From: Escherichia phage vB_EcoM_G17
DNA length: 64,000 nt
Reading direction: 5' to 3' (one strand)
Sequence record: MK327931.1
In this document: positions 50,171 through 61,201 of the stretch, piece after piece
Numbering within the stretch: position 1 is the stretch's first letter
Layout of the letters: every line of letters starts with the position of its first letter
Made by a program: the position numbers and the translations under genes
Notes under the pieces: generated by a model
What the model was told of the DNA's origin: nothing
Database searches by the model: none
Seen by the model: only the letters and a program-made list of their open reading frames with translations

Positions 50171-50193
50171 TTTTATTTCTCTCTCTTTGTTAG

Positions 50194-50255: not shown

Positions 50256-50258
50256 TAC

Positions 50259-50534
50259 TTAAGTATTGTAAATGTCGTGAATAGTGATAAAGTTTTTACG
50301 ACCGTAAACCTGCAAATCAATATCAATGTAGTGCTTATCTAGTACATCCTCGACGCTTAACGCGGTGTCGTGGATATCTTCGTAGAATTGAGGATCTACA
50401 ATCTTGCTTAAGTCATCCGGCGTTAACTTATCGTTAAGCCATTGAACCGCCTGGATATCTGCTTCACGTTTCCAGTCTTCCAGGTTAGTAGTCAGTACTT
50501 GTTCGATTTCGTTAGCTGTCAGTAGAATCCGCAT
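50259..50534 (-). CDS. hypothetical small protein
   Basis: 91-aa ORF. Confidence 0.7.
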   Translation of the reverse strand: MRILLTANEIEQVLTTNLEDWKREADIQAVQWLNDKLTPDDLSKIVDPQFYEDIHDTALSVEDVLDKHYIDIDLQVYGRKNFITIHDIYNT

Positions 50535-50567
50535 TTTTATGTTTCCTTATCAGTGGTTGATGTAAGT

Positions 50568-50595
50568 ATTATACTCGTTTACTTTCTATTGTCAA
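50568..50595 (-). promoter_or_regulatory. sigma70-like promoter (proximal of a tandem pair)
   Basis: -35 TTGACA 50590-95, 16-nt spacer, -10 TATAAT 50568-73. Confidence 0.7.
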
Positions 50596-50605
50596 ACTAT
50601 TTTAT

Positions 50606-50674
50606 CAGGGGAGTTTTTCGTATGTCTTACTCCTGGACTACTTAACAGGGTTACTTATTTCGTTCCCCGTCCTG
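50606..50674 (-). promoter_or_regulatory. conserved ~70-nt leader element, copy 1
   Basis: CAGGGGAGTTTTTCG..CTTACTCCTGG.CTACTTAAC..CGTTCCCCGTCCTG; complementary ends; copies at 60594-60664 and (diverged) 57590-57647. Confidence 0.45.
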
Positions 50675-50683
50675 ATGTAAAAC

Positions 50684-50711
50684 ATTATACTTGATTCTAA
50701 GTACAATGCAA
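50684..50711 (-). promoter_or_regulatory. sigma70-like promoter (distal of a tandem pair)
   Basis: -35 TTGCAT 50706-11, 16-nt spacer, -10 TATAAT 50684-89. Confidence 0.7.
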
Positions 50712-50742
50712 GTACTTTTTTAAAAATAGTTTTCAGTACTAG

Positions 50743-50750
50743 CCACCAGC
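50743..50750 (-). other. Chi octamer on minus strand (intergenic)
   Basis: plus strand reads CCACCAGC. Confidence 0.85.
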
Positions 50751-50758
50751 AAACAATA

Positions 50759-50835
50759 GATACATTTATGCACCCTGTGGGCTGATTTGTTTCTATGCGT
50801 ATATAATAGCAAAGGGACTGACCGGAGTCAATCCC
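50759..50835 (-). repeat. terminator/promoter/box module, copy 3
   Basis: hairpin 50814-35 with -35 TTGACT 50826-31; 17-nt spacer; -10 TATTAT 50803-08; box AGCCCACAGGGTGCATAAATGTATC 50759-83. Confidence 0.65.
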
Positions 50836-50849
50836 TTTTTCAAATATTT

Positions 50850-50999
50850 TTAAACTTCTTTCGGGTTGCGATAGGTGATAGCGTTCGGGTACATTTGTTT
50901 AATGTTATTCCATGCCTGGTTAACATTATAACCACTTGAGCGAATCAGTTGGTTACTACCGACACCTTGAAACACTACTTCGAATAAGAATTCTTTCAT
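50850..50999 (-). CDS. small protein (49 aa)
   Basis: below track cutoff; ATGA-coupled to the upstream ORF; MKEFLFEVVFQGVGSNQLIRSSG... Confidence 0.5.
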   Translation of the reverse strand: MKEFLFEVVFQGVGSNQLIRSSGYNVNQAWNNIKQMYPNAITYRNPKEV

Positions 51000-51169
51000 G
51001 CTTTCACCTCGCTATCTGCTTTACCTTTACGCCAGGACATTACTAATTGTTCGCGTTGCCATAAGTCGAGTGATACAAAAAGTTTTGCGGTATCACTTTT
51101 AGGATACTCGCCAGTAGTACCTAACCGATAAAACAGATCTTTCAGTACTGATAATTCTACTTGAATCAT
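50996..51169 (-). CDS. small protein (57 aa)
   Basis: below track cutoff; ATGA-coupled on both sides. Confidence 0.5.
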   Translation of the reverse strand: MIQVELSVLKDLFYRLGTTGEYPKSDTAKLFVSLDLWQREQLVMSWRKGKADSEVKA

Positions 51170-51258
51170 TTTATTACTCCTGATTGCGTTAATACTTCTA
51201 CTATTGCATGAATGATCATAAGTACAGCTAACACAATAATCATCGGATTCATTTGCAT
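51166..51258 (-). CDS. hydrophobic micro-protein (30 aa)
   Basis: MQMNPMIIVLAVLMIIHAIVEVLTQSGVIK; ATGA-coupled to the next ORF. Confidence 0.4.
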   Translation of the reverse strand: MQMNPMIIVLAVLMIIHAIVEVLTQSGVIK

Positions 51259-51275
51259 AAGCTGTACTCCTTATA

Positions 51276-51488
51276 TTAATCTTTCAGCCAATGATCTTGA
51301 ATGAATTTTTCACCGTATCCCTGTTTCATGGATTCTAACAGGCGTTCGCGGTGAGCGGCGGCATATTGCTCAGTACTATGCGTTACGCCAGGCTGATAAC
51401 GTGATACCCCATCCGGTCCGATGTATTGTACATCCCACGGTTTTTCGTTAGTATCAGACCATTTACGAACGATTAGTTGACCTTGCAT
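51276..51488 (-). CDS. hypothetical small protein
   Basis: 70-aa ORF, first gene of a 4-gene mini-operon. Confidence 0.7.
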   Translation of the reverse strand: MQGQLIVRKWSDTNEKPWDVQYIGPDGVSRYQPGVTHSTEQYAAAHRERLLESMKQGYGEKFIQDHWLKD

Positions 51489-51505
51489 TTTTCTTTCCTC
51501 TCAGT

Positions 51506-51565
51506 GGGGAGAATCATTTCTCCCCTTCATGTAACTTATTATACAGTACTAGATTATCTTGTCAA
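51506..51565 (-). promoter_or_regulatory. promoter + 5' leader hairpin cassette
   Basis: -35 TTGACA 51560-65, 16-nt spacer, -10 TATAAT 51538-43; hairpin GGGGAGAA-tcat-TTCTCCCC 51506-25. Confidence 0.8.
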
Positions 51566-51571
51566 TAGTTT

Positions 51572-51895
51572 TTATTCACCTTGTTTGAATTTAGTTTTCT
51601 CCATTGATTCCATGATTGCAACCAATACGCTGTGGATCTCGCTTAACGCGGAATCACTGAAAGCATTAATGAATAGTCGATCATTCTCGCGAATATTTTT
51701 AATGTACTTTTCAGCAGTAGTTGCGAATTCATTCAACGGTAGATCAAATGCTTTATCCCATGATGGATGGCGTAATTGTAACAGTACTGGATTATCACGA
51801 TCACCAGGGGAAAACGTACCAGTGATGAAACATACGCCCGGAATACTTTCGAACTGGCAACGGACTTCCTTTGTGATAGTAGTATGAATGTACAT
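51572..51895 (-). CDS. hypothetical protein
   Basis: 107-aa ORF. Confidence 0.7.
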   Translation of the reverse strand: MYIHTTITKEVRCQFESIPGVCFITGTFSPGDRDNPVLLQLRHPSWDKAFDLPLNEFATTAEKYIKNIRENDRLFINAFSDSALSEIHSVLVAIMESMEKTKFKQGE

Positions 51896-51922
51896 TTATT
51901 GTTATCCTCTATTAAATTAATA

Positions 51923-52117
51923 TTACAGTTTATGAATCAATTCTTTATCTAAGCGATAGCGTACATTATTAATAGTAACGGCATTGTTTTTAATGCTACG
52001 CTGTACAGGTCCACCAGCAATAACAAATGTTGCTTTATTACCCCGAACAATGATAGCACTTCCAGGATTACCGAAATCATCTTGTACTAAAATACTTGAT
52101 AAGTTTTCCATTTTCAT
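51923..52117 (-). CDS. hypothetical small protein
   Basis: 64-aa ORF; contains a coding Chi at 52011-18. Confidence 0.7.
   Translation of the reverse strand: MKMENLSSILVQDDFGNPGSAIIVRGNKATFVIAGGPVQRSIKNNAVTINNVRYRLDKELIHKL
52011..52018 (-). other. Chi octamer on minus strand (coding, A-G-G codons)
   Basis: plus strand reads CCACCAGC. Confidence 0.85.
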
Positions 52118-52129
52118 TTCCTCTTAGTA

Positions 52130-52186
52130 GGGGAAGATGTTTCCCCTTGATGTAAGTACTATAACACTACTGGATAGTACTGTCAA
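52130..52186 (-). promoter_or_regulatory. promoter + 5' leader hairpin cassette
   Basis: -35 TTGACA 52181-86, 17-nt spacer, -10 TATAGT 52158-63; hairpin GGGGAA..TTCCCC 52130-46. Confidence 0.75.
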
Positions 52187-52192
52187 TACTTT

Positions 52193-52450
52193 TTATCTCA
52201 TAGATCTATGCCAACAATTACGCGGGGGACGTTTAAAAGTACTATCATGATCCTCCTGGCAAGTTATGCAGTACTTACATCCCTTAACAGCCTGGCGGCG
52301 ATTCTCAGGGATTTTATCGCCACAGTCGAGGCAATGTATCAGTGATTCTATTTGTGCGTTAATTTGCTTTCTAGCGTGGTTTACGGCGGCCTGAATCACT
52401 GCGTTAATCTCGTCTTGTTCGGCCCCGTCTTTCGCGAATCCTACAGCCAT
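52193..52450 (-). CDS. TraR/DksA-family C4 zinc-finger protein
   Basis: CLDCGDKIPENRRQAVKGCKYCITCQ matches the C-x2-C-x17-C-x2-C TraR/DksA signature with IP..RR. Confidence 0.75.
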   Translation of the reverse strand: MAVGFAKDGAEQDEINAVIQAAVNHARKQINAQIESLIHCLDCGDKIPENRRQAVKGCKYCITCQEDHDSTFKRPPRNCWHRSMR

Positions 52451-52647
52451 TATTTTAACCTTTTTCTATCATTAATTAATGCTTTCAGTACTATACTAAT
52501 AACTTGCAATGATTCATCAATGACTATAAAATTATTTTCTTTCATTAGATGATAGTTACCATTGATATTATATTCTAACGAGTACTGTTTACGTTTAATT
52601 TTTGATAATGTTTCTATTTGTTTTTGTACTGATTTCATGCTAATCAT
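52450..52647 (-). CDS. hypothetical small protein
   Basis: 65-aa ORF, 1-nt overlap with the TraR-like gene. Confidence 0.65.
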   Translation of the reverse strand: MISMKSVQKQIETLSKIKRKQYSLEYNINGNYHLMKENNFIVIDESLQVISIVLKALINDRKRLK

Positions 52648-52723
52648 TGTTAAACGTCCTGTAACGCATTCTAACGAGATAAACGGTTTAGTACTGGCAT
52701 TGTATAGGGTAATGAATTAAAGC

Positions 52724-52731
52724 CCACCAGC
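52724..52731 (-). other. Chi octamer on minus strand (intergenic, inside hairpin AGCCCAC..GTGGGCT)
   Basis: plus strand reads CCACCAGC. Confidence 0.85.
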
Positions 52732-52752
52732 GTTAACCAGTGGGCTATAATC

Positions 52753-52896
52753 TTACATCTTGCGGATAATCTTAACAGTATCTTTCACCGATTTACCGTC
52801 TTGCTGGCATTGCTCGATCATTGCGTATTGTTCTGCGGTCAGATCCTCGCCAGTTTTTGCCAGTACTGCGTCGATGAATGAATCCAGTGCGATCAT
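52753..52896 (-). CDS. small protein (47 aa), paralog of 56635..56787
   Basis: below track cutoff; own promoter; C-term CQQDGKSVKDTVKIIRKM vs CAKHGKTINETASIIDKL. Confidence 0.55.
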   Translation of the reverse strand: MIALDSFIDAVLAKTGEDLTAEQYAMIEQCQQDGKSVKDTVKIIRKM

Positions 52897-52940
52897 TTTA
52901 TTTCTCTCTTAGGTTAAGTTAACTACTGTTTATAAAACTT

Positions 52941-52968
52941 ATTATACAGTACTATCAAACGTTGTCAA
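52941..52968 (-). promoter_or_regulatory. sigma70 consensus promoter
   Basis: -35 TTGACA 52963-68, 16-nt spacer, -10 TATAAT 52941-46. Confidence 0.7.
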
Positions 52969-52995
52969 TATATTTAATAGTACTGGTAATATATT

Positions 52996-53175
52996 TTAGC
53001 GGTAATCGTCGTATGCTTTATTCACCTGGCGAATGTAACTTTCAAAGGCTTCGTCTACCGTTTCATACTCCCGAACATAATCACCATAGGAAACTACATA
53101 CATACCTTTTTGATCTTCAAACGTCATGATGATAGAATCCAGACCAACGATTTCAGTTTTTGCGATGATAGCCAT
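52996..53175 (-). CDS. small protein (59 aa)
   Basis: below track cutoff; AAGGAAT SD region; own promoter. Confidence 0.55.
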   Translation of the reverse strand: MAIIAKTEIVGLDSIIMTFEDQKGMYVVSYGDYVREYETVDEAFESYIRQVNKAYDDYR

Positions 53176-53211
53176 TTTTTTAATTCCTTAGTAGTGTAGT
53201 TGATAAAACTT

Positions 53212-53240
53212 ATTATGCCAGTACTATCAATCATTGTCAA
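53212..53240 (-). promoter_or_regulatory. sigma70-like promoter (duplicate of 56060-56088)
   Basis: -35 TTGACA 53235-40, 17-nt spacer, -10 CATAAT 53212-17. Confidence 0.7.
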
Positions 53241-53268
53241 TAGCTTTGATAGTACTGTGATAATATTT

Positions 53269-53481
53269 TTAGTTAATGATAGTCAGTGTAAAATTGTAAT
53301 CACCACAGCGATATAGCACGTTATTCCCAAATGTTCCAACTAATCGCACATCACACAAAACGCCGGTTTTTTCTTTTACTTCCTTGATACTTGTAACTCC
53401 TGTAATATCTTTATTAAAGTATTCATGATCTGAAAATAAAACTTGTTTTGCATTTTTTAATTTCGACCGGATATTAGCCAT
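53269..53481 (-). CDS. hypothetical small protein
   Basis: 70-aa ORF. Confidence 0.7.
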   Translation of the reverse strand: MANIRSKLKNAKQVLFSDHEYFNKDITGVTSIKEVKEKTGVLCDVRLVGTFGNNVLYRCGDYNFTLTIIN

Positions 53482-53501
53482 TTTGTTTTCTCTCTGTTAG
53501 T

Positions 53502-53561
53502 GGGGAGAAGTTTTTCTCCCCTTGATGTAAACTATTATACAGTACTATAATCTATTGTCAA
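53502..53561 (-). promoter_or_regulatory. promoter + 5' leader hairpin cassette
   Basis: -35 TTGACA 53556-61, 16-nt spacer, -10 TATAAT 53534-39; hairpin GGGGAGAA-gttt-TTCTCCCC 53502-21. Confidence 0.8.
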
Positions 53562-53576
53562 ACTATTTTTTTTATA

Positions 53577-53918
53577 TTATTCGAAATCTTCTGGACCGGA
53601 CTGATAATCATCTTCACCGTATGCACTTTCTAACTTCTCGCCAGTGTGGTCATCAGTTAGTGAGTCATCCTCATAGTTCACGTCTACGCCAGTGATGTAA
53701 AACTGGCTATCGTCTGGATCATTGAAATTAATTTTCTGTATGTTTACAATAACTGTATTGATGCCCAGGACACCGCCATCAGCCGTTACAAAGTACTGAT
53801 ATTTTTCACAACCGCCTGAATTGAAACCGTAATTAATTTCGGCCCGACCATCATTTAAACGCAGTGCCTGAGCGATGATTTCATTTTCAAAGTTAGATTG
53901 AGCAATTGAGATAGTCAT
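53577..53918 (-). CDS. hypothetical acidic protein
   Basis: 113-aa ORF. Confidence 0.7.
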   Translation of the reverse strand: MTISIAQSNFENEIIAQALRLNDGRAEINYGFNSGGCEKYQYFVTADGGVLGINTVIVNIQKINFNDPDDSQFYITGVDVNYEDDSLTDDHTGEKLESAYGEDDYQSGPEDFE

Positions 53919-53938
53919 GATTTGTTTCCTTATTACCA

Positions 53939-53997
53939 GGGGAAACCGTTTCCCCTTTCGATGTAAAACATTATACGCTTATTGAGATAGTTTGCAA
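53939..53997 (-). promoter_or_regulatory. promoter + 5' leader hairpin cassette
   Basis: -35 TTGCAA 53992-97, 16-nt spacer, -10 TATAAT 53970-75; hairpin GGGGAAAC-cg-TTTCCCC 53939-55. Confidence 0.75.
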
Positions 53998-54041
53998 GTA
54001 CTTTTTAAAAATAGTTTTCAGTACTCAAACATTATACAATA

Positions 54042-54122
54042 GATACACTCCTGCACCCTGTGGGCTAGTGAGCTATCTCTCAATGAATATATAATAGCAA
54101 AATGGCTGACCGAAGTCAACCA
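54042..54122 (-). repeat. terminator/promoter/box module, copy 4
   Basis: hairpin TGGCTGAC..GTCAACCA 54103-22 (compensatory changes vs other copies), -35 TTGACT 54114-19; 17-nt spacer; -10 TATTAT 54091-96; box 54042-66. Confidence 0.65.
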
Positions 54123-54128
54123 CTTTTT

Positions 54129-54266
54129 TCATTTATTTTTAGCTTTTAGAATCGCCGCCTTTCGTGTCATTCCTTGTTTGATGTACTCCTTTACTTTCGC
54201 TTTTTTAGCGTTTACCTTGTCTGCTTTCGTTTTAGGAGTACTGTAAATTATACCGTTAGGATTCAT
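54129..54266 (-). CDS. small basic protein (45 aa)
   Basis: below track cutoff; directly follows the stop of the upstream micro-ORF. Confidence 0.45.
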   Translation of the reverse strand: MNPNGIIYSTPKTKADKVNAKKAKVKEYIKQGMTRKAAILKAKNK

Positions 54267-54356
54267 TTAAATCACCATAAAGAATAGATAGGTTACTAAC
54301 AACGCCGCGATCAATGCACCGACCAGGGCCGAACTATAGTAAGCTAATGTTTTCAT
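54267..54356 (-). CDS. hydrophobic micro-protein (29 aa)
   Basis: MKTLAYYSSALVGALIAALLVTYLFFMVI; ATGA-coupled upstream. Confidence 0.4.
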   Translation of the reverse strand: MKTLAYYSSALVGALIAALLVTYLFFMVI

Positions 54357-54505
54357 TTTTTAGCCTGAAAATAATGTTTAATTTGTGCGGCGGTCAATGC
54401 ACAATTACGCAGGAAGTTTTCTGTATAACTGCGGCGAGTACTGAAAGAGAATTGACCTTTGCCGTTGCCGATAGTAACATCAAACCGAGCGTTGTATTGT
54501 TTCAT
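54353..54505 (-). CDS. small protein (50 aa)
   Basis: below track cutoff; AAGGAGAA SD; cassette upstream. Confidence 0.55.
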   Translation of the reverse strand: MKQYNARFDVTIGNGKGQFSFSTRRSYTENFLRNCALTAAQIKHYFQAKK

Positions 54506-54524
54506 TTTGATTCTCCTTGTATCA

Positions 54525-54586
54525 GGGGAGAACCATTTCCCCCCCCTCTATGTAAACAATTATACAGTACTGGAAACTAATTGCAA
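54525..54586 (-). promoter_or_regulatory. promoter + 5' leader hairpin cassette
   Basis: -35 TTGCAA 54581-86, 16-nt spacer, -10 TATAAT 54559-64; hairpin from 54525. Confidence 0.75.
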
Positions 54587-54589
54587 GTA

Positions 54590-54736
54590 CTATTTTTTAG
54601 ATTTACGCAAACTTTCTACCATCTCAGGAGTAAGGCCCGGCGGGTAGGAAACCACTTCATCCACAAAACGCAAAGGGAATACCCCAGCGAAAGGTGAACG
54701 TGCTTTCTTGTTAGTACTCTTTTTTGATGCTTTCAT
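54590..54736 (-). CDS. small protein (48 aa)
   Basis: below track cutoff; cassette upstream; MKASKKSTNKKARSPFAG... Confidence 0.5.
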   Translation of the reverse strand: MKASKKSTNKKARSPFAGVFPLRFVDEVVSYPPGLTPEMVESLRKSKK

Positions 54737-54755
54737 TTCATATTCCTTAATTAGT

Positions 54756-54815
54756 GGGGAGAATCATTTCTCCCCTTCATGTAAAACATTATACAGTACT
54801 GAAAACTAATTGCAA
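54756..54815 (-). promoter_or_regulatory. promoter + 5' leader hairpin cassette
   Basis: -35 TTGCAA 54810-15, 16-nt spacer, -10 TATAAT 54788-93; hairpin GGGGAGAA-tcat-TTCTCCCC 54756-75. Confidence 0.8.
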
Positions 54816-55015
54816 GTACTATTTGAAAGTAAATGCTCATACGCTGCATTAACTACGTTTTCAATAACCGACTGTACAGAAAGATCCCCCACGTCCCGGC
54901 TATAGTAGAAATCGCTTACAGTGGTGTCATCGTATGCAAATACTTTACCAGGTACGGCATCAATCACATACATATTAACCTTTAAGATGTCGATCTTATC
55001 CTGTACAGTAAGCAT
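54806..55015 (-). CDS. hypothetical small protein
   Basis: 69-aa ORF. Confidence 0.65.
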   Translation of the reverse strand: MLTVQDKIDILKVNMYVIDAVPGKVFAYDDTTVSDFYYSRDVGDLSVQSVIENVVNAAYEHLLSNSTCN

Positions 55016-55020
55016 ATTAA

Positions 55021-55293
55021 TTAACCTTTTAAGTACTGGCTTAAGTAGTCTTGTTGATCTTCGGTGATTGCAGCCATCTTCCCTAGTACTGGATTGATGA
55101 TATAATCCCCTGTAACGTCCTGTAACGCATTCTCAGGCGGTTTAACGGCTGGGGTAGCCATAGCCATTGCCTGGACTTGTTCGACGCTGTAACGCTCATA
55201 AAGGCGGCATTCTTCCGGTGTTAACATAGCATCAGTACGCTTCATCGGTTTAATGATGCTTTCGATCTCATTCAGTACTTGATTAACGTTCAT
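55021..55293 (-). CDS. hypothetical small protein
   Basis: 90-aa ORF. Confidence 0.7.
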   Translation of the reverse strand: MNVNQVLNEIESIIKPMKRTDAMLTPEECRLYERYSVEQVQAMAMATPAVKPPENALQDVTGDYIINPVLGKMAAITEDQQDYLSQYLKG

Positions 55294-55344
55294 GGTATAA
55301 TCCCCAATATAAGCGGCCTGAATCGACCGCTAACGATGTTTTGA

Positions 55345-55614
55345 TTAATAGGTGTATGGTTGACGTTCAAACAATGATTGCACGTTGTACGCCCCACTAA
55401 TGGGCTTTGCTGGTAAATCAATTTTATATTGTTCACGCTTAAAGATAATAAAACGGCAATTGTTTTTTACATCAAAATTGATTGAACGTTCCAGGAGTTT
55501 TCCATCGTGTACAAATACAAGATAACCGCTTGCTACTTGTTTTGTAGTACTGGTTGCAACCATAGACCGACGAACATGCGTACCTGCATCGATTAAAGTA
55601 CTGATATTTTTCAT
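55345..55614 (-). CDS. hypothetical small protein
   Basis: 89-aa ORF. Confidence 0.7.
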   Translation of the reverse strand: MKNISTLIDAGTHVRRSMVATSTTKQVASGYLVFVHDGKLLERSINFDVKNNCRFIIFKREQYKIDLPAKPISGAYNVQSLFERQPYTY

Positions 55615-55652
55615 TATACGATCCTCTTAAGTTAATTTAATTTCTTTCCCCT

Positions 55653-55689
55653 ATGCAGACACTATATCAAAGTATCTGCATAAAGTAAA
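55653..55689 (-). promoter_or_regulatory. promoter bracketed by a palindromic operator-like repeat
   Basis: -35 TTTACT 55684-89, 17-nt spacer, -10 TATAGT 55661-66; 7-bp arms ATGCAGA (55653-59) / TCTGCAT (55675-81) flank the -10. Confidence 0.55.
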
Positions 55690-55694
55690 GCTAA

Positions 55695-56018
55695 TTAAAG
55701 ATCTTTTTTGCGTTTAACATTCTGTACAGTACAATGCAACGGGATATTAAGATCATTGCACACACGAGTAAGGGAGGTTTCATCAGTATTAAGCCCGTCT
55801 ACTGATTCCTTTAAGAGAGATAACGCCGTTTGTTGATATGCATCTTCATAGCCATAAGTAAATGATTCAACCGCCAGATCATTCAAACCGTTATCCAGTT
55901 CAACGCTTACATGACAAGAATGATAAGTATTGCCATATGAATCAGTCCAACGTTTACCGTCAACATTGATTGCACGGATTGCAGCCAGGGAAACGGTGTT
56001 AATGATAGTTTTAGCCAT
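55695..56018 (-). CDS. hypothetical protein, paralog of 49577..49900
   Basis: shared RWTDSYGNTYHSCHVS...FTYGY...VKRKKDL. Confidence 0.75.
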   Translation of the reverse strand: MAKTIINTVSLAAIRAINVDGKRWTDSYGNTYHSCHVSVELDNGLNDLAVESFTYGYEDAYQQTALSLLKESVDGLNTDETSLTRVCNDLNIPLHCTVQNVKRKKDL

Positions 56019-56059
56019 TTTTGTATTCCTTAAATTAATATGTTGTCTTGATAAAATCT

Positions 56060-56088
56060 ATTATGCCAGTACTATCAAACTATGTCAA
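56060..56088 (-). promoter_or_regulatory. sigma70-like promoter
   Basis: -35 TTGACA 56083-88, 17-nt spacer, -10 CATAAT 56060-65. Confidence 0.7.
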
Positions 56089-56107
56089 TAGTACTGTGAT
56101 AATATTT

Positions 56108-56251
56108 TTACTTACTTTTTGCTTTCTTTGCTGCTTCCACCTGGTCGGCCCATTCTTTACCCCATACTTGTAAATTATAATGGTACTGGCAAAGAGCAAC
56201 GCCCCGCTTTAAACCCGTAATAGATTTCTGACCACATTGACAAGTTTTCAT
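56108..56251 (-). CDS. small Cys-rich protein (47 aa)
   Basis: below track cutoff; MKTCQCGQKS...CQYH; cassette upstream. Confidence 0.55.
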   Translation of the reverse strand: MKTCQCGQKSITGLKRGVALCQYHYNLQVWGKEWADQVEAAKKAKSK

Positions 56252-56268
56252 TTTAGTTTCCTTGTAGT

Positions 56269-56328
56269 GGGGAGAACCATTTCTCCCCTTGATGTAATGT
56301 ATTATACTTTATTCGATTTACTTTGCAA
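56269..56328 (-). promoter_or_regulatory. promoter + 5' leader hairpin cassette
   Basis: -35 TTGCAA 56323-28, 16-nt spacer, -10 TATAAT 56301-06; hairpin GGGGAGAA-ccat-TTCTCCCC 56269-88. Confidence 0.8.
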
Positions 56329-56337
56329 GTACTTTTT

Positions 56338-56565
56338 TTAATTTAATTCATCCAGGCAAAGGATACGCTCAACGCCCAAATCAGTTAAACTAATCGACGG
56401 CACTTGATAGGTTTCAATGTATGCTACACTTGCCCACTGACCGAACTCATTAACGGCCCAGGTATTCATTGCATTTTGCAATTCCGCACCTTCCTTGTTG
56501 GTAATTACAGCAACAGTAGAAGAATTACCAGTAGTACCAGATACGCGAGTGATTACGATAGCCAT
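56338..56565 (-). CDS. hypothetical small protein
   Basis: 75-aa ORF. Confidence 0.7.
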   Translation of the reverse strand: MAIVITRVSGTTGNSSTVAVITNKEGAELQNAMNTWAVNEFGQWASVAYIETYQVPSISLTDLGVERILCLDELN

Positions 56566-56597
56566 TTTTTAATTCCTATTCAGTAGTTGATGTATGT

Positions 56598-56626
56598 ATT
56601 ATGTCAGTACTTAAAACTATTGTCAA
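56598..56626 (-). promoter_or_regulatory. sigma70-like promoter
   Basis: -35 TTGACA 56621-26, 17-nt spacer, -10 CATAAT 56598-603. Confidence 0.7.
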
Positions 56627-56634
56627 ACTATTTT

Positions 56635-56787
56635 TTAAAGTTTATCAATGATTGATGCCGTTTCATTGATAGTCTTGCCGTGTTTTGCACACGCGATAAC
56701 TGCTTTAAATTCCTTTGATGACCAATCTTTCTTGCTGCATACTGACATTACTTGTAAAGTAAAACAATCCAGTTCATAAGTATTCAT
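56635..56787 (-). CDS. small protein (50 aa), paralog of 52753..52896
   Basis: below track cutoff; own promoter. Confidence 0.55.
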   Translation of the reverse strand: MNTYELDCFTLQVMSVCSKKDWSSKEFKAVIACAKHGKTINETASIIDKL

Positions 56788-56832
56788 CTTTAAATCCTCA
56801 GTTAGTTAAGGTGTCTCGCCTTGATGTAATTA

Positions 56833-56860
56833 ATTATACGCTAATCTCTTAATCGTGCAA
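56833..56860 (-). promoter_or_regulatory. sigma70-like promoter
   Basis: -35 TTGCAC 56855-60, 16-nt spacer, -10 TATAAT 56833-38. Confidence 0.65.
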
Positions 56861-56925
56861 GTACTTTTTATTACTTTTTGCAAAATACTTTAAACGCTCT
56901 CAATCGCATTCTAACGACCTTAACT

Positions 56926-56933
56926 CCACCAGC
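56926..56933 (-). other. Chi octamer on minus strand (intergenic)
   Basis: plus strand reads CCACCAGC. Confidence 0.85.
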
Positions 56934-57002
56934 TAGGGCGATGTATCAGATAATCAGTTTAATGCGTTAGGCGGTGCTAGTGGACTGGAATACTATAGAC
57001 AC

Positions 57003-57029
57003 AAAAAAGCCCACTGTTTAAGGTGGGCT
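57003..57029 (-). terminator. rho-independent terminator (copy 1 of an identical ~40-bp repeat)
   Basis: AGCCCAC-8nt-GTGGGCT followed by T6 on minus strand after 57051..57533. Confidence 0.85.
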
Positions 57030-57050
57030 AGTGATTCAGTACTTTAATTT

Positions 57051-57533
57051 TTATGCTTCAACTTTGCGATGAGCTTCGATCCATTCCTCGCGAGTCATAC
57101 CGCTTTCTTTGATAGCGTCCAGTACTACCGCAATGCAGTTACCGCGTACAGGAATCAAATGTTCTTCCCCGTTATCAAGTACTACCGCTACACGTTCCTG
57201 AATCCATTTTTTAGGCTTAGATTCCGGCTTATCTTCACCATACTTAACCGCCAGGGCTTTATGTGCCATTTCCACAACCACTTCCAGATCCAATCCAGAC
57301 ACTGCCGCCTGAATACTTTCAATTGTTGCTTGTAGTTCTGCTTCACGGGCTTTTTTCTGTTCTTCCAGTTCTGCTACCTTTTTGGCTTGCAGTTCTTTCG
57401 CAGTACTGTACGCAATGTTAAAATTGTTGCGTACCGCTTTCATGGTATCGCTATCCAGTTCAGCCAGGATTTCTGCCGCTACGTTAGTTTCATTTGCTAC
57501 CAGTGCTTTGATGAATGATTTTACATTAGCCAT
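57051..57533 (-). CDS. hypothetical protein with a central coiled-coil-like segment
   Basis: trimmed to MANVKSF; KELQAKKVAELEEQKKAREAELQATIESIQ. Confidence 0.75.
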   Translation of the reverse strand: MANVKSFIKALVANETNVAAEILAELDSDTMKAVRNNFNIAYSTAKELQAKKVAELEEQKKAREAELQATIESIQAAVSGLDLEVVVEMAHKALAVKYGEDKPESKPKKWIQERVAVVLDNGEEHLIPVRGNCIAVVLDAIKESGMTREEWIEAHRKVEA

Positions 57534-57589
57534 TTTATAAATCCTCAATTAAAGTTTAGTTTACGTTAGATAGTGTATCAAAGTTTTCT

Positions 57590-57647
57590 CGACGTGTCCA
57601 GTTTTTCGTTCGACTTACTGGCGGTCTACTTAGTGCTCCCCGTCTTG
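57590..57647 (-). promoter_or_regulatory. conserved leader element, diverged copy 3
   Basis: shares GTTTTTCG, CTTACT, CTACTTA and CCCCGTCTTGATG blocks with 50606-50674 and 60594-60664. Confidence 0.35.
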
Positions 57648-57656
57648 ATGTAATAC

Positions 57657-57684
57657 ATTCTACGCTTTTCTGTGGTAATGTCAA
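57657..57684 (-). promoter_or_regulatory. sigma70-like promoter
   Basis: -35 TTGACA 57679-84, 16-nt spacer, -10 TAGAAT 57657-62. Confidence 0.65.
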
Positions 57685-57738
57685 CTACTTTTTTAAAACT
57701 ATTTTTAAAGTATCTCAGTACTACGATACTACAAAAAC

Positions 57739-57765
57739 AAAAAAGCCCACTGTTTAAGGTGGGCT
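57739..57765 (-). terminator. rho-independent terminator (copy 2 of an identical repeat)
   Basis: same AGCCCAC..GTGGGCT stem followed by T6 after 57783..58082. Confidence 0.85.
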
Positions 57766-57782
57766 AGTGATTCAGTACTAGA

Positions 57783-58082
57783 TTATAAACAGTTAATTAC
57801 TCCGGTGTGCGTTACTTTCTCAGTATCCATAACCGTGACCGATCCACGCTTAGTACTGGCATCATAATAAATTGTGGTGCTACCGTTTTCGTCTTCTTCA
57901 TGGAACGGGCCGTTTTTAAATGCTTCCGGCTGGATCTCTAAATCCTTTAATACAATCTCGCCAGTTCTTTCATCGGTCATTGCAACAGTGCACTGAATGA
58001 ATTTTTCATTACTTACATCTAATGACGCATTAACAGCGAAAGAGGAAACAGATAAAGCCAGGGCGATGATTGCAATTTTCAT
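57783..58082 (-). CDS. secreted/periplasmic small protein
   Basis: N-term signal peptide MKIAIIALALSVSSFAVNA. Confidence 0.75.
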   Translation of the reverse strand: MKIAIIALALSVSSFAVNASLDVSNEKFIQCTVAMTDERTGEIVLKDLEIQPEAFKNGPFHEEDENGSTTIYYDASTKRGSVTVMDTEKVTHTGVINCL

Positions 58083-58102
58083 TTGATTATCCTTAGTTAC
58101 CA

Positions 58103-58161
58103 GGGGGAACCGCTCCCCCTTGCTATGTAAAATATTATACAGTACTAAAAACTAATTGCAA
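58103..58161 (-). promoter_or_regulatory. promoter + 5' leader hairpin cassette
   Basis: -35 TTGCAA 58156-61, 16-nt spacer, -10 TATAAT 58134-39; hairpin GGGGGAA-ccg-CTCCCCC 58103-19. Confidence 0.75.
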
Positions 58162-58166
58162 GTACT

Positions 58167-58403
58167 TTATGATTTTTTATAAAACATTTCGGCAGTGATA
58201 TTTTTACCCGTTGGCTGTACTTTATCCAGAATTTTTTGATGCCCTGGCCGTCCAAATGAATATGATCCGTAAACCGTAAACCAGTAGTTACCCTCAGTGT
58301 TTACATGTACAGCACAATAGGGAACGCCCCGCGATTCATCACTAGTAAAGTGTGCTACCGTTCCCGTTACATTCGAAGTCGTTGATTTGATTTGTTCAAG
58401 CAT
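58167..58403 (-). CDS. hypothetical small protein
   Basis: 78-aa ORF. Confidence 0.7.
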   Translation of the reverse strand: MLEQIKSTTSNVTGTVAHFTSDESRGVPYCAVHVNTEGNYWFTVYGSYSFGRPGHQKILDKVQPTGKNITAEMFYKKS

Positions 58404-58424
58404 TTTCTTATTCCTTAGTTACCA

Positions 58425-58477
58425 GGGGAACCGCTCCCCTATGCAAAACATTATACGCGTTTAAAAACTAATAGCAA
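58425..58477 (-). promoter_or_regulatory. promoter + 5' leader hairpin cassette
   Basis: -35 TTGCTA 58472-77, 16-nt spacer, -10 TATAAT 58450-55; hairpin 58425-39. Confidence 0.7.
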
Positions 58478-58510
58478 GTATTTTAATAAAAAGTATTTGG
58501 AAAATAATTG

Positions 58511-58539
58511 TTGACAAGTGCATCCAGTACTGGCATAAT
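58511..58539 (+). promoter_or_regulatory. plus-strand sigma70 promoter, divergent from 58450-58477
   Basis: -35 TTGACA 58511-16, 17-nt spacer, -10 CATAAT 58534-39. Confidence 0.65.
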
Positions 58540-58545
58540 TACTAC

Positions 58546-58654
58546 ATCAAGACGAAACAGTCACTAACCCACCGGGTGCATAGATCCGTCTATTAAATGA
58601 TTCAGTACTGAAAAAGTAACGGGGAGTTATTATCTCCCCGCGTTGTTATTTTGT
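58546..58654 (+). ncRNA. candidate ~110-nt plus-strand small RNA
   Basis: own promoter; hairpin GAC-gaaaca-GTC; box AACCCACCGGGTGCATAG 58566-83; ATAGA-tccg-TCTAT; terminal hairpin CGGGGAG-7nt-CTCCCCG 58620-40 followed by a U-rich tail; no ORF. Confidence 0.4.
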
Positions 58655-58867
58655 AAGGTATAAACAGAAGTCACCTTTATTTGCTACGCCGCCAGTGTAA
58701 CGCGATGAATAGTTAGAAATATCTTGTACTTCTGCTATTACCAGTGTATCATCATTCATTTCGTCGCAGAAGCAAACGGCTGGATCTTTTACGCCGATAT
58801 TGTCGGCATGTTCCCGCATAGATTTAACCAGTGCTTCCAGTTGAGAAAGAGTAGTGATATTAGCCAT
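58646..58867 (-). CDS. hypothetical small protein
   Basis: trimmed to MANITTLSQ. Confidence 0.7.
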   Translation of the reverse strand: MANITTLSQLEALVKSMREHADNIGVKDPAVCFCDEMNDDTLVIAEVQDISNYSSRYTGGVANKGDFCLYLTK

Positions 58868-58886
58868 TGTATTTTCCTCATTACCA

Positions 58887-58945
58887 GGGAGAACCATTTC
58901 TCCCCTCTATGTAAACTATTATACAGTACTGAAAACTAATTGCAA
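58887..58945 (-). promoter_or_regulatory. promoter + 5' leader hairpin cassette
   Basis: -35 TTGCAA 58940-45, 16-nt spacer, -10 TATAAT 58918-23; hairpin 58887-904. Confidence 0.75.
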
Positions 58946-58953
58946 GTACTTTT

Positions 58954-59157
58954 TTAATTTAATTGCTTTAAAACATACTCAAAGACACCACGCACATCAT
59001 TGATCATCGCCTGGCGGTTAGCAGGTAACGCATCAGGATCGCCACTATCCCAGGCATTGATAAAACTCCCCAAATCATGATAGATTTTATTCTGTAAGCC
59101 GATTAACTGTAATTCTTTTTCTTCAAGCTCTTTGATGCGGTCGATTAAATCACTCAT
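58954..59157 (-). CDS. hypothetical small protein
   Basis: trimmed to MSDLIDRIKE after GAGGA. Confidence 0.65.
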   Translation of the reverse strand: MSDLIDRIKELEEKELQLIGLQNKIYHDLGSFINAWDSGDPDALPANRQAMINDVRGVFEYVLKQLN

Positions 59158-59174
59158 TAGATAATCCTCAGTAC

Positions 59175-59459
59175 TTAACTGTAAGATCCGCAACGGTCGC
59201 AGTAGTGCCCGTCCTCGTCATCGTCAACGAATTGACCGACGAAATGATCTACTTTCGCTTTCAGGTTATTATAATCGTTTTCTACTTCATTTAAACGCTT
59301 CTGGTAGTATTCCAGTGCTTTAAGATATGCCGCATCAGCAGTTTTCTCCTGCATAGCTAAATTCATGCCACGCGTTTCATCGTACAGCCAAAAACCATCG
59401 GTGCACTGGCTAATAGATAATGACTTGCTTAGTACTGTATAGTTAATTACTTTACCCAT
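59175..59459 (-). CDS. hypothetical small protein
   Basis: 94-aa ORF; C-term HYCDRCGSYS. Confidence 0.7.
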   Translation of the reverse strand: MGKVINYTVLSKSLSISQCTDGFWLYDETRGMNLAMQEKTADAAYLKALEYYQKRLNEVENDYNNLKAKVDHFVGQFVDDDEDGHYCDRCGSYS

Positions 59460-59477
59460 TAGATAATCCTCAGTAAA

Positions 59478-59537
59478 GGCGGGAACTATTCCCCGCCTCG
59501 ATATAAAGTATTATACGTTAATCTAACTACAATGCAA
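59478..59537 (-). promoter_or_regulatory. promoter + 5' leader hairpin cassette
   Basis: -35 TTGCAT 59532-37, 16-nt spacer, -10 TATAAT 59510-15; hairpin GGCGGGAA-cta-TTCCCCGCC 59478-97. Confidence 0.75.
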
Positions 59538-59551
59538 GTACTTTTTAAATT

Positions 59552-59818
59552 TTATAATCCTTTTACTGCATCAGGTGCGACTACTCCATCAATGTATTGA
59601 ACATCGTTTTCAACTTCACGGGCGGCATCATTCAGCAGATCAAAATTAAATTCCATTTCTTCCAGATCATCGAAATCAGGCTCATAACCATTAATTGTTG
59701 AATAAGTCCAAGTACCTTTTTCATAAGTTACGACACTTACATCAGGGAAGAAATCTTGCACATGATCCATCGCATCCCGAACCAATTGATGTGCAGTTGT
59801 GATATTTAAAGTTTTCAT
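59552..59818 (-). CDS. hypothetical small protein
   Basis: 88-aa ORF. Confidence 0.7.
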   Translation of the reverse strand: MKTLNITTAHQLVRDAMDHVQDFFPDVSVVTYEKGTWTYSTINGYEPDFDDLEEMEFNFDLLNDAAREVENDVQYIDGVVAPDAVKGL

Positions 59819-59839
59819 TTTGTTGCCCTTTTAGTGTGA

Positions 59840-59899
59840 GCGGGGAACCACTCCCCGCCTCGATGTAAAGTATTATACGCTTTTAAACTTAGTTTGCAA
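59840..59899 (-). promoter_or_regulatory. promoter + 5' leader hairpin cassette
   Basis: -35 TTGCAA 59894-99, 16-nt spacer, -10 TATAAT 59872-77; hairpin GCGGGGAA-cca-CTCCCCGC 59840-58. Confidence 0.75.
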
Positions 59900-59911
59900 G
59901 TACTTTTTAAA

Positions 59912-60523
59912 TTAATATGCGATTGATTCTACTACGTCATCAATAACATTGAATTGATATTCGTTACCCTCAATCAGTGCCGTAATGTTTTCAGTAGTGA
60001 ATTGATCCTCATATGCATTCTCTAAATCACGGTACAACTTGCGGGATAATTCACGAATAGTTTCAGTGAGTAGTTCCTCAAGCTCATTAACTAACGTTTC
60101 TTGTTTTGCGGTTAAATCAGTGTAAGCCGATTCAATGTACCCGCTTACAGTATTCTCATGCGAGTAGTGGGAGTGAGAACGCTTTACACTCATCGCCAAA
60201 TCATCTTCATTCAGCAGGTGACGGATTGAGCGATACTTAGTTAATGCTCTTACCTTGCGTAAAAACTTCACTGCGTCAACGTGGTCAGTACTGATTGATG
60301 CACCGTCACCCTGGGACCAAAAACCACTGAATTGTATTTCAGCTTCATTAATGCCATATTCCGGTAGTACTGTTTCTTTATAGTATTCAATTTCACTTTC
60401 AGAAAAATAATTGTCGTTTGAGTTTTTTTCACGTTCCCGAACCAGTTCGATAGCTGACGTTTTTTGTTCTGCGTTCAATTCAGAAAAATCCATAACGAAA
60501 GTAGTAGTAGTGATAGTTTTCAT
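59912..60523 (-). CDS. hypothetical protein
   Basis: 203-aa ORF; motif FSGFWSQGDGASIS, family not identified. Confidence 0.75.
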   Translation of the reverse strand: MKTITTTTFVMDFSELNAEQKTSAIELVREREKNSNDNYFSESEIEYYKETVLPEYGINEAEIQFSGFWSQGDGASISTDHVDAVKFLRKVRALTKYRSIRHLLNEDDLAMSVKRSHSHYSHENTVSGYIESAYTDLTAKQETLVNELEELLTETIRELSRKLYRDLENAYEDQFTTENITALIEGNEYQFNVIDDVVESIAY

Positions 60524-60555
60524 TTTGTAACCCTCATTCAGTAGTTGATGTAAGT

Positions 60556-60583
60556 ATTATACGCTTTTAAAAACATTTGTCAA
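60556..60583 (-). promoter_or_regulatory. sigma70-like promoter (proximal of a tandem pair)
   Basis: -35 TTGACA 60578-83, 16-nt spacer, -10 TATAAT 60556-61. Confidence 0.7.
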
Positions 60584-60593
60584 ACTATTTTAT

Positions 60594-60664
60594 CAGGGGA
60601 GTTTTTCGTGTGCCTTACTCCTGGGCTACTTAACGGGAAGTTACTTATTTCGTTCCCCGTCCTG
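60594..60664 (-). promoter_or_regulatory. conserved ~70-nt leader element, copy 2
   Basis: near-copy of 50606-50674. Confidence 0.45.
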
Positions 60665-60673
60665 ATGTAAAAC

Positions 60674-60701
60674 ATTATACGCCTTTAAACATAGTTTGCA
60701 A
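60674..60701 (-). promoter_or_regulatory. sigma70-like promoter (distal of a tandem pair)
   Basis: -35 TTGCAA 60696-701, 16-nt spacer, -10 TATAAT 60674-79. Confidence 0.7.
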
Positions 60702-60746
60702 GTACTTTTTAAAAATAGTTTTCAGTACTGAATATTTAAAAAAGTA

Positions 60747-60810
60747 TTGACAGCATTATCAAGTACTGGCATAATATACCCCATGACAACAGCTAACCCA
60801 CCGGGTGCAC
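60747..60810 (+). promoter_or_regulatory. plus-strand promoter followed by a box (plus sense)
   Basis: -35 TTGACA 60747-52, 17-nt spacer, -10 CATAAT 60770-75; box AACCCACCGGGTGCAC 60795-810. Confidence 0.6.
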
Positions 60811-60842
60811 AATTGTAACTATACTAAACTACTTTTTCTATA

Positions 60843-60919
60843 GATACACTCCCGCACCCTATGGGCTACGGCTTATCTGCCAATGAATACATTATGCCAG
60901 TACTGACAAAATAAGTCAA
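60843..60919 (-). promoter_or_regulatory. minus-strand promoter followed by a box, convergent with 60747-60810
   Basis: -35 TTGACT 60914-19, 17-nt spacer, -10 CATAAT 60891-96; box AGCCCATAGGGTGCGGGAGTGTATC 60843-67. Confidence 0.6.
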
Positions 60920-60949
60920 TACCGGCAATTGTAAAGATTTGTAAACTGC

Positions 60950-61180
60950 TTATACTGCAATCGCGTCCAGGCTATAATAATAATAAGTGCCGTATTGGTG
61001 TACTTTATTACCTTTTATTTCAGTACTGAATGAATCCGAACGGTTTGCATATGATGTTAATTTAAAGTACTTTGATTTGCTGATACGTTGCCATACACCG
61101 CAGATCCGCTGTAAGTAAGTAGTTTTATTCGTGGTAGTATCTTTTACAGTTTTAACTTCAGTCATATACATATTAGTCAT
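60950..61180 (-). CDS. hypothetical small protein
   Basis: 76-aa ORF. Confidence 0.7.
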   Translation of the reverse strand: MTNMYMTEVKTVKDTTTNKTTYLQRICGVWQRISKSKYFKLTSYANRSDSFSTEIKGNKVHQYGTYYYYSLDAIAV

Positions 61181-61201
61181 TTTTATTACTCCAGGTTATA
61201 G

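Follow-up and report, generated by a model that had tools for sequence, protein, structure and literature searches.

The DNA analysed here, referred to below as the window, is a stretch of 64,000 nucleotides (nt) from Escherichia phage vB_EcoM_G17 (MK327931.1). It is Asteriusvirus-type jumbo coliphage DNA, 99.7% identical to Escherichia phage Sharanji over the stretch tested. From about 48 to 64 kb the minus strand carries every gene, in a dense run of small cassettes that typically consist of a sigma70 promoter, a hairpin of G and C runs a few nt past the predicted start, a ribosome-binding site (RBS) and a short open reading frame (ORF). Three leaders in this run share an additional element of up to about 70 nt. 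Judging from its sequence and that of its homologues, this element is a member of a widespread and apparently unannotated family of pseudoknotted leader RNAs that includes the A1-A2 interval of phage T7.

The genes here all lie on the minus strand, and the element is therefore read as the reverse complement. Copies A (50674..50606, 69 nt) and B (60664..60594, 71 nt) are about 94% identical, with four substitutions and one 2-nt indel between them, and the likeness extends into the proximal promoter (87% identity over 100 nt). Copy C (57647..57590) retains the 3' half, UAAGUAG...AGUAAGNCNNACGAAAAACU, and its first arm is short of 17 nt. The core pattern has three matches in the window, against 0.26 expected. 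A covariance model built from 31 distinct members, the E-values of which are rough, found exactly these three sites in the 64 kb, with scores of 52-54 bits (E 6e-14 to 2e-13) and nothing more above noise. An earlier note on this DNA had described A and B as near-identical and C as a diverged third copy, which the alignment and the model (E about 1e-13) confirm.

The same note had placed copies A and B between a distal promoter (TTGCAT or TTGCAA) and a proximal one (TTGACA), each with a TATAAT -10, and had called the genes behind the copies unrelated. Scanning and direct reading recovered these promoters (Table 1), and the genes downstream of A, B and C fall into three different PHROGs (phrog_14947, phrog_5162 and phrog_27871), all of unknown function. 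The distal -35 of copy A matches the consensus at only 3/6 positions and was therefore not listed by the promoter scan. The proximal promoter of copy A gives a short, hairpin-less leader that reaches the ATG at 50534; leaders of the same type, forming one repeat family, are also found at 56563 and 60538. A promoter at 50831 puts copy A in a triple tandem array, P0-P1-P2. We take the T7 A1 start to lie 7 nt past the -10, at the A of ATCGAGAGGG, and by analogy with this position the transcripts with copies A and B are predicted to start at the A of AUCAGG. The element can be carried by upstream-promoter transcripts only, and the discrete, conserved and structured leader that had been proposed for these transcripts is supported.

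Fold and covariation of the element

The minimum-free-energy fold of copies A and B is a three-way junction (z about -1.9), and a consensus fold computed from 15 variants supports the copy A structure. Complementarity between the ends of the element had been noted earlier. The ends do pair in this fold, as AUCAGG with CCUGAU, while the G and C runs to which the complementarity had been ascribed are instead used in two internal arms, hairpins H1 and H2. Transcription is predicted to start with the first base of the closing helix. H1 has a loop of 13-14 nt and is followed by an 11-nt linker to H2, written UUAAGUAGYCCA. H1 is homologous to the G/C hairpin that follows at least 17 promoters of the region: aligned with the cassettes that share the distal-type promoter, it is the ordinary post-promoter hairpin with its loop enlarged, and what copies A and B gain relative to ordinary cassettes is the linker, H2 and the closing helix. 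H1 stands next to the 5' side of the linker in A and B but not in C, as in the short forms of phages UPEC06 and Hallingskeid. The first internal arm is an ordinary post-promoter hairpin, and the conserved heart of the element is the pseudoknotted second hairpin; both points were absent from the earlier note.

As predicted from the aligned sequences, the family core comprises H1, the single-stranded linker UAAGUAG-GNC, H2 (4-5 bp) and a 3-bp pseudoknot between GNC of the linker and GN'C of the H2 loop. This loop is 16-17 nt long and reads (A)UAAG-N'-C-RYAYGAAMAA. The predicted topology is that of an H-type pseudoknot with a stem 1 of 3 bp, a loop 1 of 1-2 nt and H2 as stem 2; (A)UAA would form loop 2, and an A-rich segment of 10 nt loop 3.

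Among 31 distinct sequences, 94% of the cells of H2 pair, and three of the five pairs have changed on both sides (C-G/G-C; C-G/G-C/U-A; U-A/A-U). The H2 score was reached by none of 500 shuffles, and shifted registers gave 22-45% pairing. Within the window, H2 of copy C differs from that of A and B by compensation of GG/CC to CC/GG. For H1 we found 16 distinct stem versions, all adjoining the linker, with examples such as ACCG/CGGU, UCCAG/CUGGA, GCCAC/GUGGU, GCCUGG/CCAGGU, GGGA/UCCC and ACGGGG/CCCCGU; swapped arms pair in only 12% of combinations, a test that is partly circular, the stems having been found by a search for perfect hairpins. The closing helix is present with differing sequence in every non-T7 lineage (AUCAGG/CCUGAU, GACGG/CCGUC, CAUC..CGG/CCG..GAUG, GCGGC/GUCGC) and absent from T7-like versions.

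The scan for the pseudoknot left both positions of its middle pair free. In 44 of the 45 distinct members these positions are paired (A:U in 30, C:G in 7 and U:A in 7, with one mismatch), and the three window copies already differ: U:A in A, C:G in B and A:U in C. The changes recur in three H2 backgrounds, namely GGAG/CUCC (U:A and C:G), CCAG/CUGG (A:U, C:G and U:A) and CCUG/CAGG (A:U and U:A), which implies at least four independent double substitutions. G-U pairs on the sense strand number nine in H1 and 11 at one H2 pair; since these would be A-C mismatches on the other strand, the molecule that folds is most probably the early transcript. RNAalifold run on MAFFT alignments missed H1, the loop lengths being misaligned, and found no covariation inside the closely related A/B subfamily. 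A long alternative hairpin, suggested by paired G and C insertions in Justusliebigvirus muut, was dropped, the TH47 record having no such co-insertion. The source records CMSTMSU and TH47 are flagged as unverified and contain indels.

This pattern of substitution bears on the idea that the conserved feature is the DNA, with any RNA structure incidental: an UP element or a spacing device for the downstream promoter, or a recombination linker resembling the promoter-early stem-loop cassettes (PeSLs) of T4-type phages (Arbiol et al. 2010, PMC2839356). We consider this quite improbable. The region is indeed a mosaic of repeated promoter/stem-loop cassettes, entire cassettes are common to unrelated phages, and in T7 the place of a proximal UP subsite of A2, at about -47 to -41, is taken by the GAAAAAC of the H2 loop. 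However, the distance from the start of the motif to the downstream -35 ranges from 37 to 78 nt, so that the A-tract cannot serve as an UP element in most members and the geometry of T7 alone fits. Moreover, neither the compensation in H1, H2 and the pseudoknot nor the G-U pairs on the sense strand would be expected of a double-stranded site.

Table 1. Predicted features of the three copies and of a second repeated element; positions are those of the window.
Feature	Position	Sequence or arrangement	Strand	Basis
Copy A, distal promoter P1	50711-50706 (-35); 50689-50684 (-10)	TTGCAT, 16-nt spacer, TATAAT	minus	direct reading
Copy A, predicted +1	50676	A	minus	analogy with T7 A1
Copy A, element	50676-50604		minus	minimum-free-energy fold; covariance-model match 50645-50608, E = 6e-14
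Copy A, closing helix	50676-50671 with 50609-50604	AUCAGG with CCUGAU		
Copy A, H1	50670-50665 with 50650-50645	ACGGGG with CCCUGU; 14-nt loop		
Copy A, linker	50644-50638	UAAGUAG		
Copy A, pseudoknot	50638-50636 with 50626-50624	linker G-U-C with loop G-A-C		family covariation of middle pair
Copy A, H2	50633-50630 with 50613-50610	GGAG with CUCC; 16-nt loop		
Copy A, proximal promoter P2	50595..50568	TTGACA-16-TATAAT	minus	promoter scan, 12/12 matches
Copy B, distal promoter P1	60701..60674	TTGCAA-16-TATAAT	minus	promoter scan and direct reading
Copy B, predicted +1	60666	A	minus	analogy with T7 A1
Copy B, element	60666-60592		minus	minimum-free-energy fold; covariance-model match 60633-60596, E = 2e-13
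Copy B, closing helix	60666-60661 with 60597-60592			
Copy B, H1	60660-60654 with 60639-60633	ACGGGGA with UUCCCGU		
Copy B, linker	60632-60626	UAAGUAG		
Copy B, pseudoknot	60626-60624 with 60614-60612	G-C-C with G-G-C		family covariation
Copy B, H2	60621-60618 with 60601-60598	GGAG with CUCC		
Copy B, proximal promoter P2	60583..60556	TTGACA-16-TATAAT, 5' of gene 59912..60523	minus	promoter scan, 12/12 matches
Copy C, promoter	57684..57657	TTGACA-16-TAGAAT	minus	promoter scan
Copy C, predicted +1	57649	A	minus	
Copy C, element (short form without H1)	57644-57591		minus	fold; covariance-model match 57633-57596, E = 8e-14
Copy C, closing helix	57644-57641 with 57594-57591	GACG with CGUC		
Copy C, linker	57632-57626	UAAGUAG		
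Copy C, pseudoknot	57626-57624 with 57614-57612	G-A-C with G-U-C		
Copy C, H2	57621-57618 with 57601-57598	CCAG with CUGG		
Weak candidate promoter 3' of copy C	57581..57553	TTGATA-17-TAAACT, before RBS and ATG 57533	minus	consensus scan, pattern match only
Second repeated element	50749-50784, 54032-54067, 60833-60868, 62727-62762; also 58535-58588, 62658-62711, 62874-62927	GCACCC...GGGC		

Occurrence among phages and the T7 homologue

BLAST searches with the A/B type gave matches in 44 Asteriusvirus, Justusliebigvirus and rV5-like records. Copies of this type are found in all 37 matching records of Asteriusvirus size and, with 87-93% identity, in seven phages of about 137-147 kb (Justusliebigvirus muut, EmilieFrey and outra, and A73, W70, A7_1 and A5-4, which are labelled Vequintavirinae). 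In those seven, the element again lies between two promoters, the promoter sequences being those of the resident phage and the genes being different. In muut, the downstream gene is the 91-amino-acid gene of the window. There the element and its flanks are 87% identical to the window over 101 nt, and on direct reading the proximal promoter, leader and gene start are nearly identical, which points to a recent horizontal transfer of an early cassette between the Asteriusvirus window phage and the unrelated Justusliebigvirus muut. The unit common to the two, 50259-50711 in the window and 2470-2932 in muut, is made of the distal promoter, the element, the proximal promoter and the 91-amino-acid gene.

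With copy C as query, matches were found in UPEC06, in the Erwinia jumbo phage Hallingskeid, in Munch-like jumbo phages and, unexpectedly, in T7-like Yersinia phages, where the site is at genome position 553-587. A query of the T7 type in turn gave matches in 584 T7-like phage records, with about one site each, from hosts that include Escherichia, Klebsiella, Salmonella, Enterobacter, Yersinia, Shigella, Citrobacter, Cronobacter and Pantoea. A core of 38 nt is common to the window phage, Justusliebigvirus, rV5-like phages, other jumbo phages and T7-like genomes, and is 85-100% identical across phage groups that otherwise have little nucleotide similarity. The carriers range from podoviruses (about 40 kb) through myoviruses (about 145 kb) to jumbo phages (about 350 kb); an enterobacterial host and dependence on its RNA polymerase for the first transcripts are common to them, and not much more. 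The earlier note had named a lack of homologues and of covariation elsewhere as evidence that would count against its leader; many phages carry the element, and its fold covaries.

The core sits a few to about 55 nt 3' of a strong early promoter for the host RNA polymerase. By script, nearly every member is flanked by sigma70-type promoters, upstream at -52 to -91 and downstream at +37 to +78, and in the EcoDS1 and LIMElight records host promoters have been annotated independently on both sides of the element. Placement between tandem promoters is, as far as these sequences indicate, a trait of the family, with T7 A1/A2 as its prototype.

No match to either element type was found by BLAST in 5,426 complete E. 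coli genomes and 72,556 plasmids. A scan of bacterial genomes yielded one true member, probably a T7-like contaminant, among the matches listed, which number at least 120, and a metagenome scan with the loose pattern AGTAAGNNNNACGAAAAACT yielded three true members among at least 120 loci. A scan of viral contigs with AGTAAGNCNNACGAAAAACT gave 0 matches, a negative that is unreliable, phage 121Q being in that collection. The family thus appears to belong to virulent phages and not to hosts or prophages. Many of its members were fetched with patterns that fix the linker and part of the loop and leave the stems, the covarying pair and the flanks free. Rfam 15 gave no match over the window at the gathering score, and at permissive E-values only chance-level matches on the element and on the T7-type homologue. 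Neither Rfam nor the literature that could be searched was found to treat the T7 stretch as an RNA element, and literature searches gave nothing relevant for the Asteriusvirus promoters either.

In T7 the stretch reads ...CCGG-GGUCAA-CCGG-A-UAAGUAGACAG-CCUG-AUAAGUCGCACGAAAAA-CAGG-UAUUGACA, or, in another notation, CCGGGGUCAACCGG-A-UAAGUAGACAG-CCUG-AUAAGUCGCACGAAAAA-CAGG-UA-UUGACA, and it fills the interval from the A1 start to the A2 -35. As in the window, H1, linker, H2 and the pseudoknot partners lie between two strong sigma70 promoters on the earliest transcripts. The T7 motif, however, is found at about +54, behind two other hairpins and without a closing helix, whereas copies A and B begin at the predicted +1 and form a closed three-way junction; these copies also have a large H1 loop, unlike the T7 homologue, and T7 has one copy against the three of the window phage. 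A 1-nt indel inside the motif separates T7 from phiA1122. Few viruses have been studied as thoroughly as T7, and its A1-A3 region is used everywhere as a source of promoters and described as merely non-coding. A recent paper treats that region as a non-coding 'internalisation signal'.

The breadth of this distribution also bears on the proposal that the element is a relic, the leftover 5' untranslated region (UTR) of a cassette whose gene was lost by recombination between cassettes and which has since been carried neutrally. The stretch after H1 does align loosely with an ordinary RBS region, where CCAGGAGUAAGACAUA resembles a Shine-Dalgarno sequence, a spacer and a decayed start codon, and PeSL-type recombination is known to delete ORFans (PMC2839356). 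Yet the core is 85-100% identical across phage groups that are otherwise dissimilar and has undergone repeated compensatory substitution, and T7-type members have no Shine-Dalgarno-like sequence at the corresponding place. We regard a relic as very improbable.

Possible roles in the early transcript

The earlier note had suggested an attenuator or a riboswitch-like element, and the leader position and conserved, aptamer-like fold would suit either. No U-run or intrinsic terminator was found after the element by folding or by terminator scan, and what follows it is a complete promoter, with the RBS a further 50-60 nt or more beyond. With no terminator behind the element, and with the RBS separated from it by a whole promoter, a classical expression platform is absent; there is no terminator/anti-terminator alternative, no helix that sequesters the RBS and no matching Rfam family, and this part of the proposal does not stand. 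A protein-binding element, also named in the note, is conceivable. A small leader peptide fares no better. One frame does run open through the motif, where small coding sequences are annotated in several records. These ORFs, however, begin in the -35 hexamer, 5' of the predicted transcript start; compensation in the stems alters their codons and residues, and the indel between T7 and phiA1122 shifts the frame, so the small-ORF reading was rejected. Regulation through a classical platform or through a leader peptide is hardly credible. The small coding sequences that start in the -35 hexamer and run over the motif (K1F gp0.1, UPEC06 998-1111, Hallingskeid 1475-1588 and 57556-57684 in the window) are probably annotation artefacts. 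ARAGORN found 0 tRNA or tmRNA genes in the window.

The element lies near the 5' end of strong early-promoter transcripts and never beside an RBS. Its effect must therefore fall on the whole transcript, on the polymerase making it, or on something in trans. We infer that it acts in cis as RNA, and through a host component, since its carriers share little beyond an enterobacterial host. Most likely, although we favour it weakly and with less than even confidence, it is a compact 5' domain that protects or insulates the transcript by burying the 5' end. Such a domain would present a mechanical barrier to 5'-end-dependent decay (RppH and RNase E entry and scanning); in addition or instead, it could block Rho loading on the long untranslated leader. 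Each downstream gene would then receive a long-lived mRNA from the upstream promoter plus an unprotected one from the proximal promoter. The stabilisation of E. coli mRNAs by stem-loops at the 5' terminus is well established, as is the requirement of RppH and RNase E for an unpaired 5' end, and compact pseudoknots make good mechanical obstacles. In favour of such protection, H1 is an ordinary 5' hairpin, the closing helix of A and B takes in the predicted 5' nucleotide, and the proximal promoters of both copies yield hairpin-less leaders.

Several points weigh against it. A plain hairpin already protects a 5' end, and about 25 near-invariant unpaired nt are then left unexplained; such conservation usually means a specific partner, protein or ligand, or a demanding tertiary fold. 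Sequestering of the 5' end is not a general role of the family, because the T7 motif lies so far behind the start. The start sites of the copies are predicted by analogy with T7 A1, and single-sequence folding energies are modest (z -0.4 to -2.3). The pattern-based collection also means that the invariance of the linker and loop positions is overstated. Taken as a whole, the proposal that the element is a transcribed, pseudoknotted RNA domain of a large virulent-phage family, with a protective role in cis included, falls a little short of an even chance.

Conservation of unpaired positions suits a specific protein contact, and this is one attraction of a processive antiterminator like the put RNAs of phage HK022. 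The nascent pseudoknot would stay on its polymerase and make it resist pausing, intrinsic terminators and Rho, so that only transcription from the upstream promoter passes the many cassette boundaries. The element would resemble put in being promoter-proximal, in working as RNA only, in having several hairpins within 40-75 nt and in needing no adjacent RBS; host RNA polymerase is common to the carriers, which share few proteins, and terminator-like hairpins do occur in the early region, one of them right after the copy C gene (57029-57008). On the other hand, no terminator is predicted right after the genes of copies A and B, and in T7 only A1 transcripts would be modified, though A2 and A3 transcripts cross the same early operon. 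Rfam gave no put match, and boxA-like sites are at chance level: GCTCTTTAACAA with up to two mismatches has 9 matches in the window against 8.3 expected, none of them near the copies. In phiA1122, boxA is found only 3' of the third tandem promoter, the counterpart of T7 A3. Antitermination of this kind seems unlikely.

The same low probability attaches to an RNA acting in trans. Here a cassette of promoter and element without an ORF would give an abundant early small RNA, released by processing, that binds or titrates a host protein or a defence sensor, or else serves as a small-molecule aptamer. The domain of A and B is made self-contained by its own helix and is followed by AU-rich sequence and the promoter of the next gene, where other cassettes carry an ORF. 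Moreover, the element is found in combination with various genes and with no fewer than four different promoters upstream and downstream, its conserved loops and pseudoknot are aptamer-like, and its restriction to virulent phages, with none in the E. coli genomes and plasmids searched, would fit. Against this, neither a terminator nor a defined 3' end is present, the closing helix is missing from T7-like versions, and a search of the window for antisense targets of the H2 loop returned only the three copies themselves. Antitermination and action in trans would both explain the sequence conservation better than protection of the 5' end does.

Possible but doubtful is a further proposal, that the element represents an unrecognised class of structured RNA in virulent enterobacterial phages, T7 included, whose pseudoknot binds a host component or a small molecule. 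RNA polymerase, Rho or Nus factors, RNase E and a defence sensor would be the candidate partners. The first early promoter would produce the RNA within seconds of infection, and the binding would reprogram, or report on, the host machinery. Whatever the role, a module present in a giant Asteriusvirus, in Justusliebigvirus, in rV5-like phages, in an Erwinia jumbo phage and in T7, and absent from host genomes and plasmids, points to strong selection. This selection would concern what the earliest phage transcripts do with the host machinery, and the hypothesis is directly open to T7 genetics. The finding also documents the exchange of early-promoter cassettes between unrelated virulent phages.

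Promoter cassettes of the region and known systems

The promoter scan listed about 30 near-consensus minus-strand promoters, and a repeat finder returned 17 copies of a promoter-plus-hairpin repeat within 16 kb. Most of the cassette hairpins lie 3' of the -10, in the 5' UTR, and have no U-run. In three window promoters a stem-loop is instead placed between -35 and -10; it is a 12-bp stem-loop, AAAGGGATTGACTCCGGTCAGTCCCTTTGCTATTAT, on the minus strand at 50803-50838, 47534-47569 and 54091-54126, and the arrangement at these sites is the one described for PeSLs of T4-type phages. Many cassettes at 48000-64000 begin their transcripts with ACATCGAGAGCGGGAAC..., similar to the CCATCGAGAGGGACACGG... 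of T7 A1 (phiA1122 465-520). This shared initial transcribed sequence suggests that one type of early-promoter cassette circulates among unrelated coliphages.

Other non-coding features were also observed. A second repeated element, with a GCACCC...GGGC core, lies between promoters 5' of the distal promoters of copies A and B and may be another inter-promoter RNA. At 60747 (+) and 60919 (-), near-consensus promoters face each other across about 110 nt without an ORF, and their sense and antisense transcripts would overlap. On the minus strand, two identical hairpins that resemble terminators, AGCCCACCTTAAACAGTGGGCT with a T-run, at 57744-57765 and 57008-57029 bracket copy C and the cassette of the 160-amino-acid gene, which suggests that these moved as one module. 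Finally, the non-coding stretch 63100-63230 contains an array with 8/16-nt periodicity, of TCYAGMCG-like units and about five copies of a 16-mer, that looks like iterons.

The nearest known counterpart of the element itself is its T7 homologue; the cassettes around it resemble the PeSLs. A PeSL is a repeat unit, about 100 bp long, in which a stem-loop of G and C runs accompanies a strong sigma70 promoter; the units stand on either side of small orphan genes, in an early region that is plastic, and are swapped between phages. In the window, too, a strong sigma70 promoter next to a G/C-rich stem-loop recurs between small ORFan genes. PeSL stem-loops, however, lie in or overlap the promoter and terminate upstream transcription, whereas the window hairpins are mostly in the 5' UTR. 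PeSL carriers are T4-type phages and the window phage is an Asteriusvirus, and the element described here adds a sequence-conserved pseudoknot module that PeSLs do not have.

The put RNAs of HK022 are promoter-proximal, multi-hairpin nascent antiterminators of about 70 nt that act in cis and at a distance and need neither an RBS nor an expression platform. The element can be likened to them by position and general architecture only. To our knowledge put RNA has not been described as a pseudoknot, and put belongs to temperate lambdoid phages, whereas the E. coli genomes searched, prophages included, do not carry the present family. With 5' stem-loop stabilisers of the ompA type, copies A and B have in common a base-paired, or nearly base-paired, 5' end right after the start, H1 taking the place of the ordinary 5' hairpin; such stabilisers need neither a conserved loop nor a pseudoknot, and the T7 homologue does not lie at the 5' end. 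Compared with the preQ1-I riboswitch and the leader pseudoknot of T4 gene 32, the element lacks an Rfam match, a platform and an adjacent RBS, and the likeness is topological only: all are H-type pseudoknots of about 35-40 nt in a 5' leader, with short stems and an A-rich third loop.

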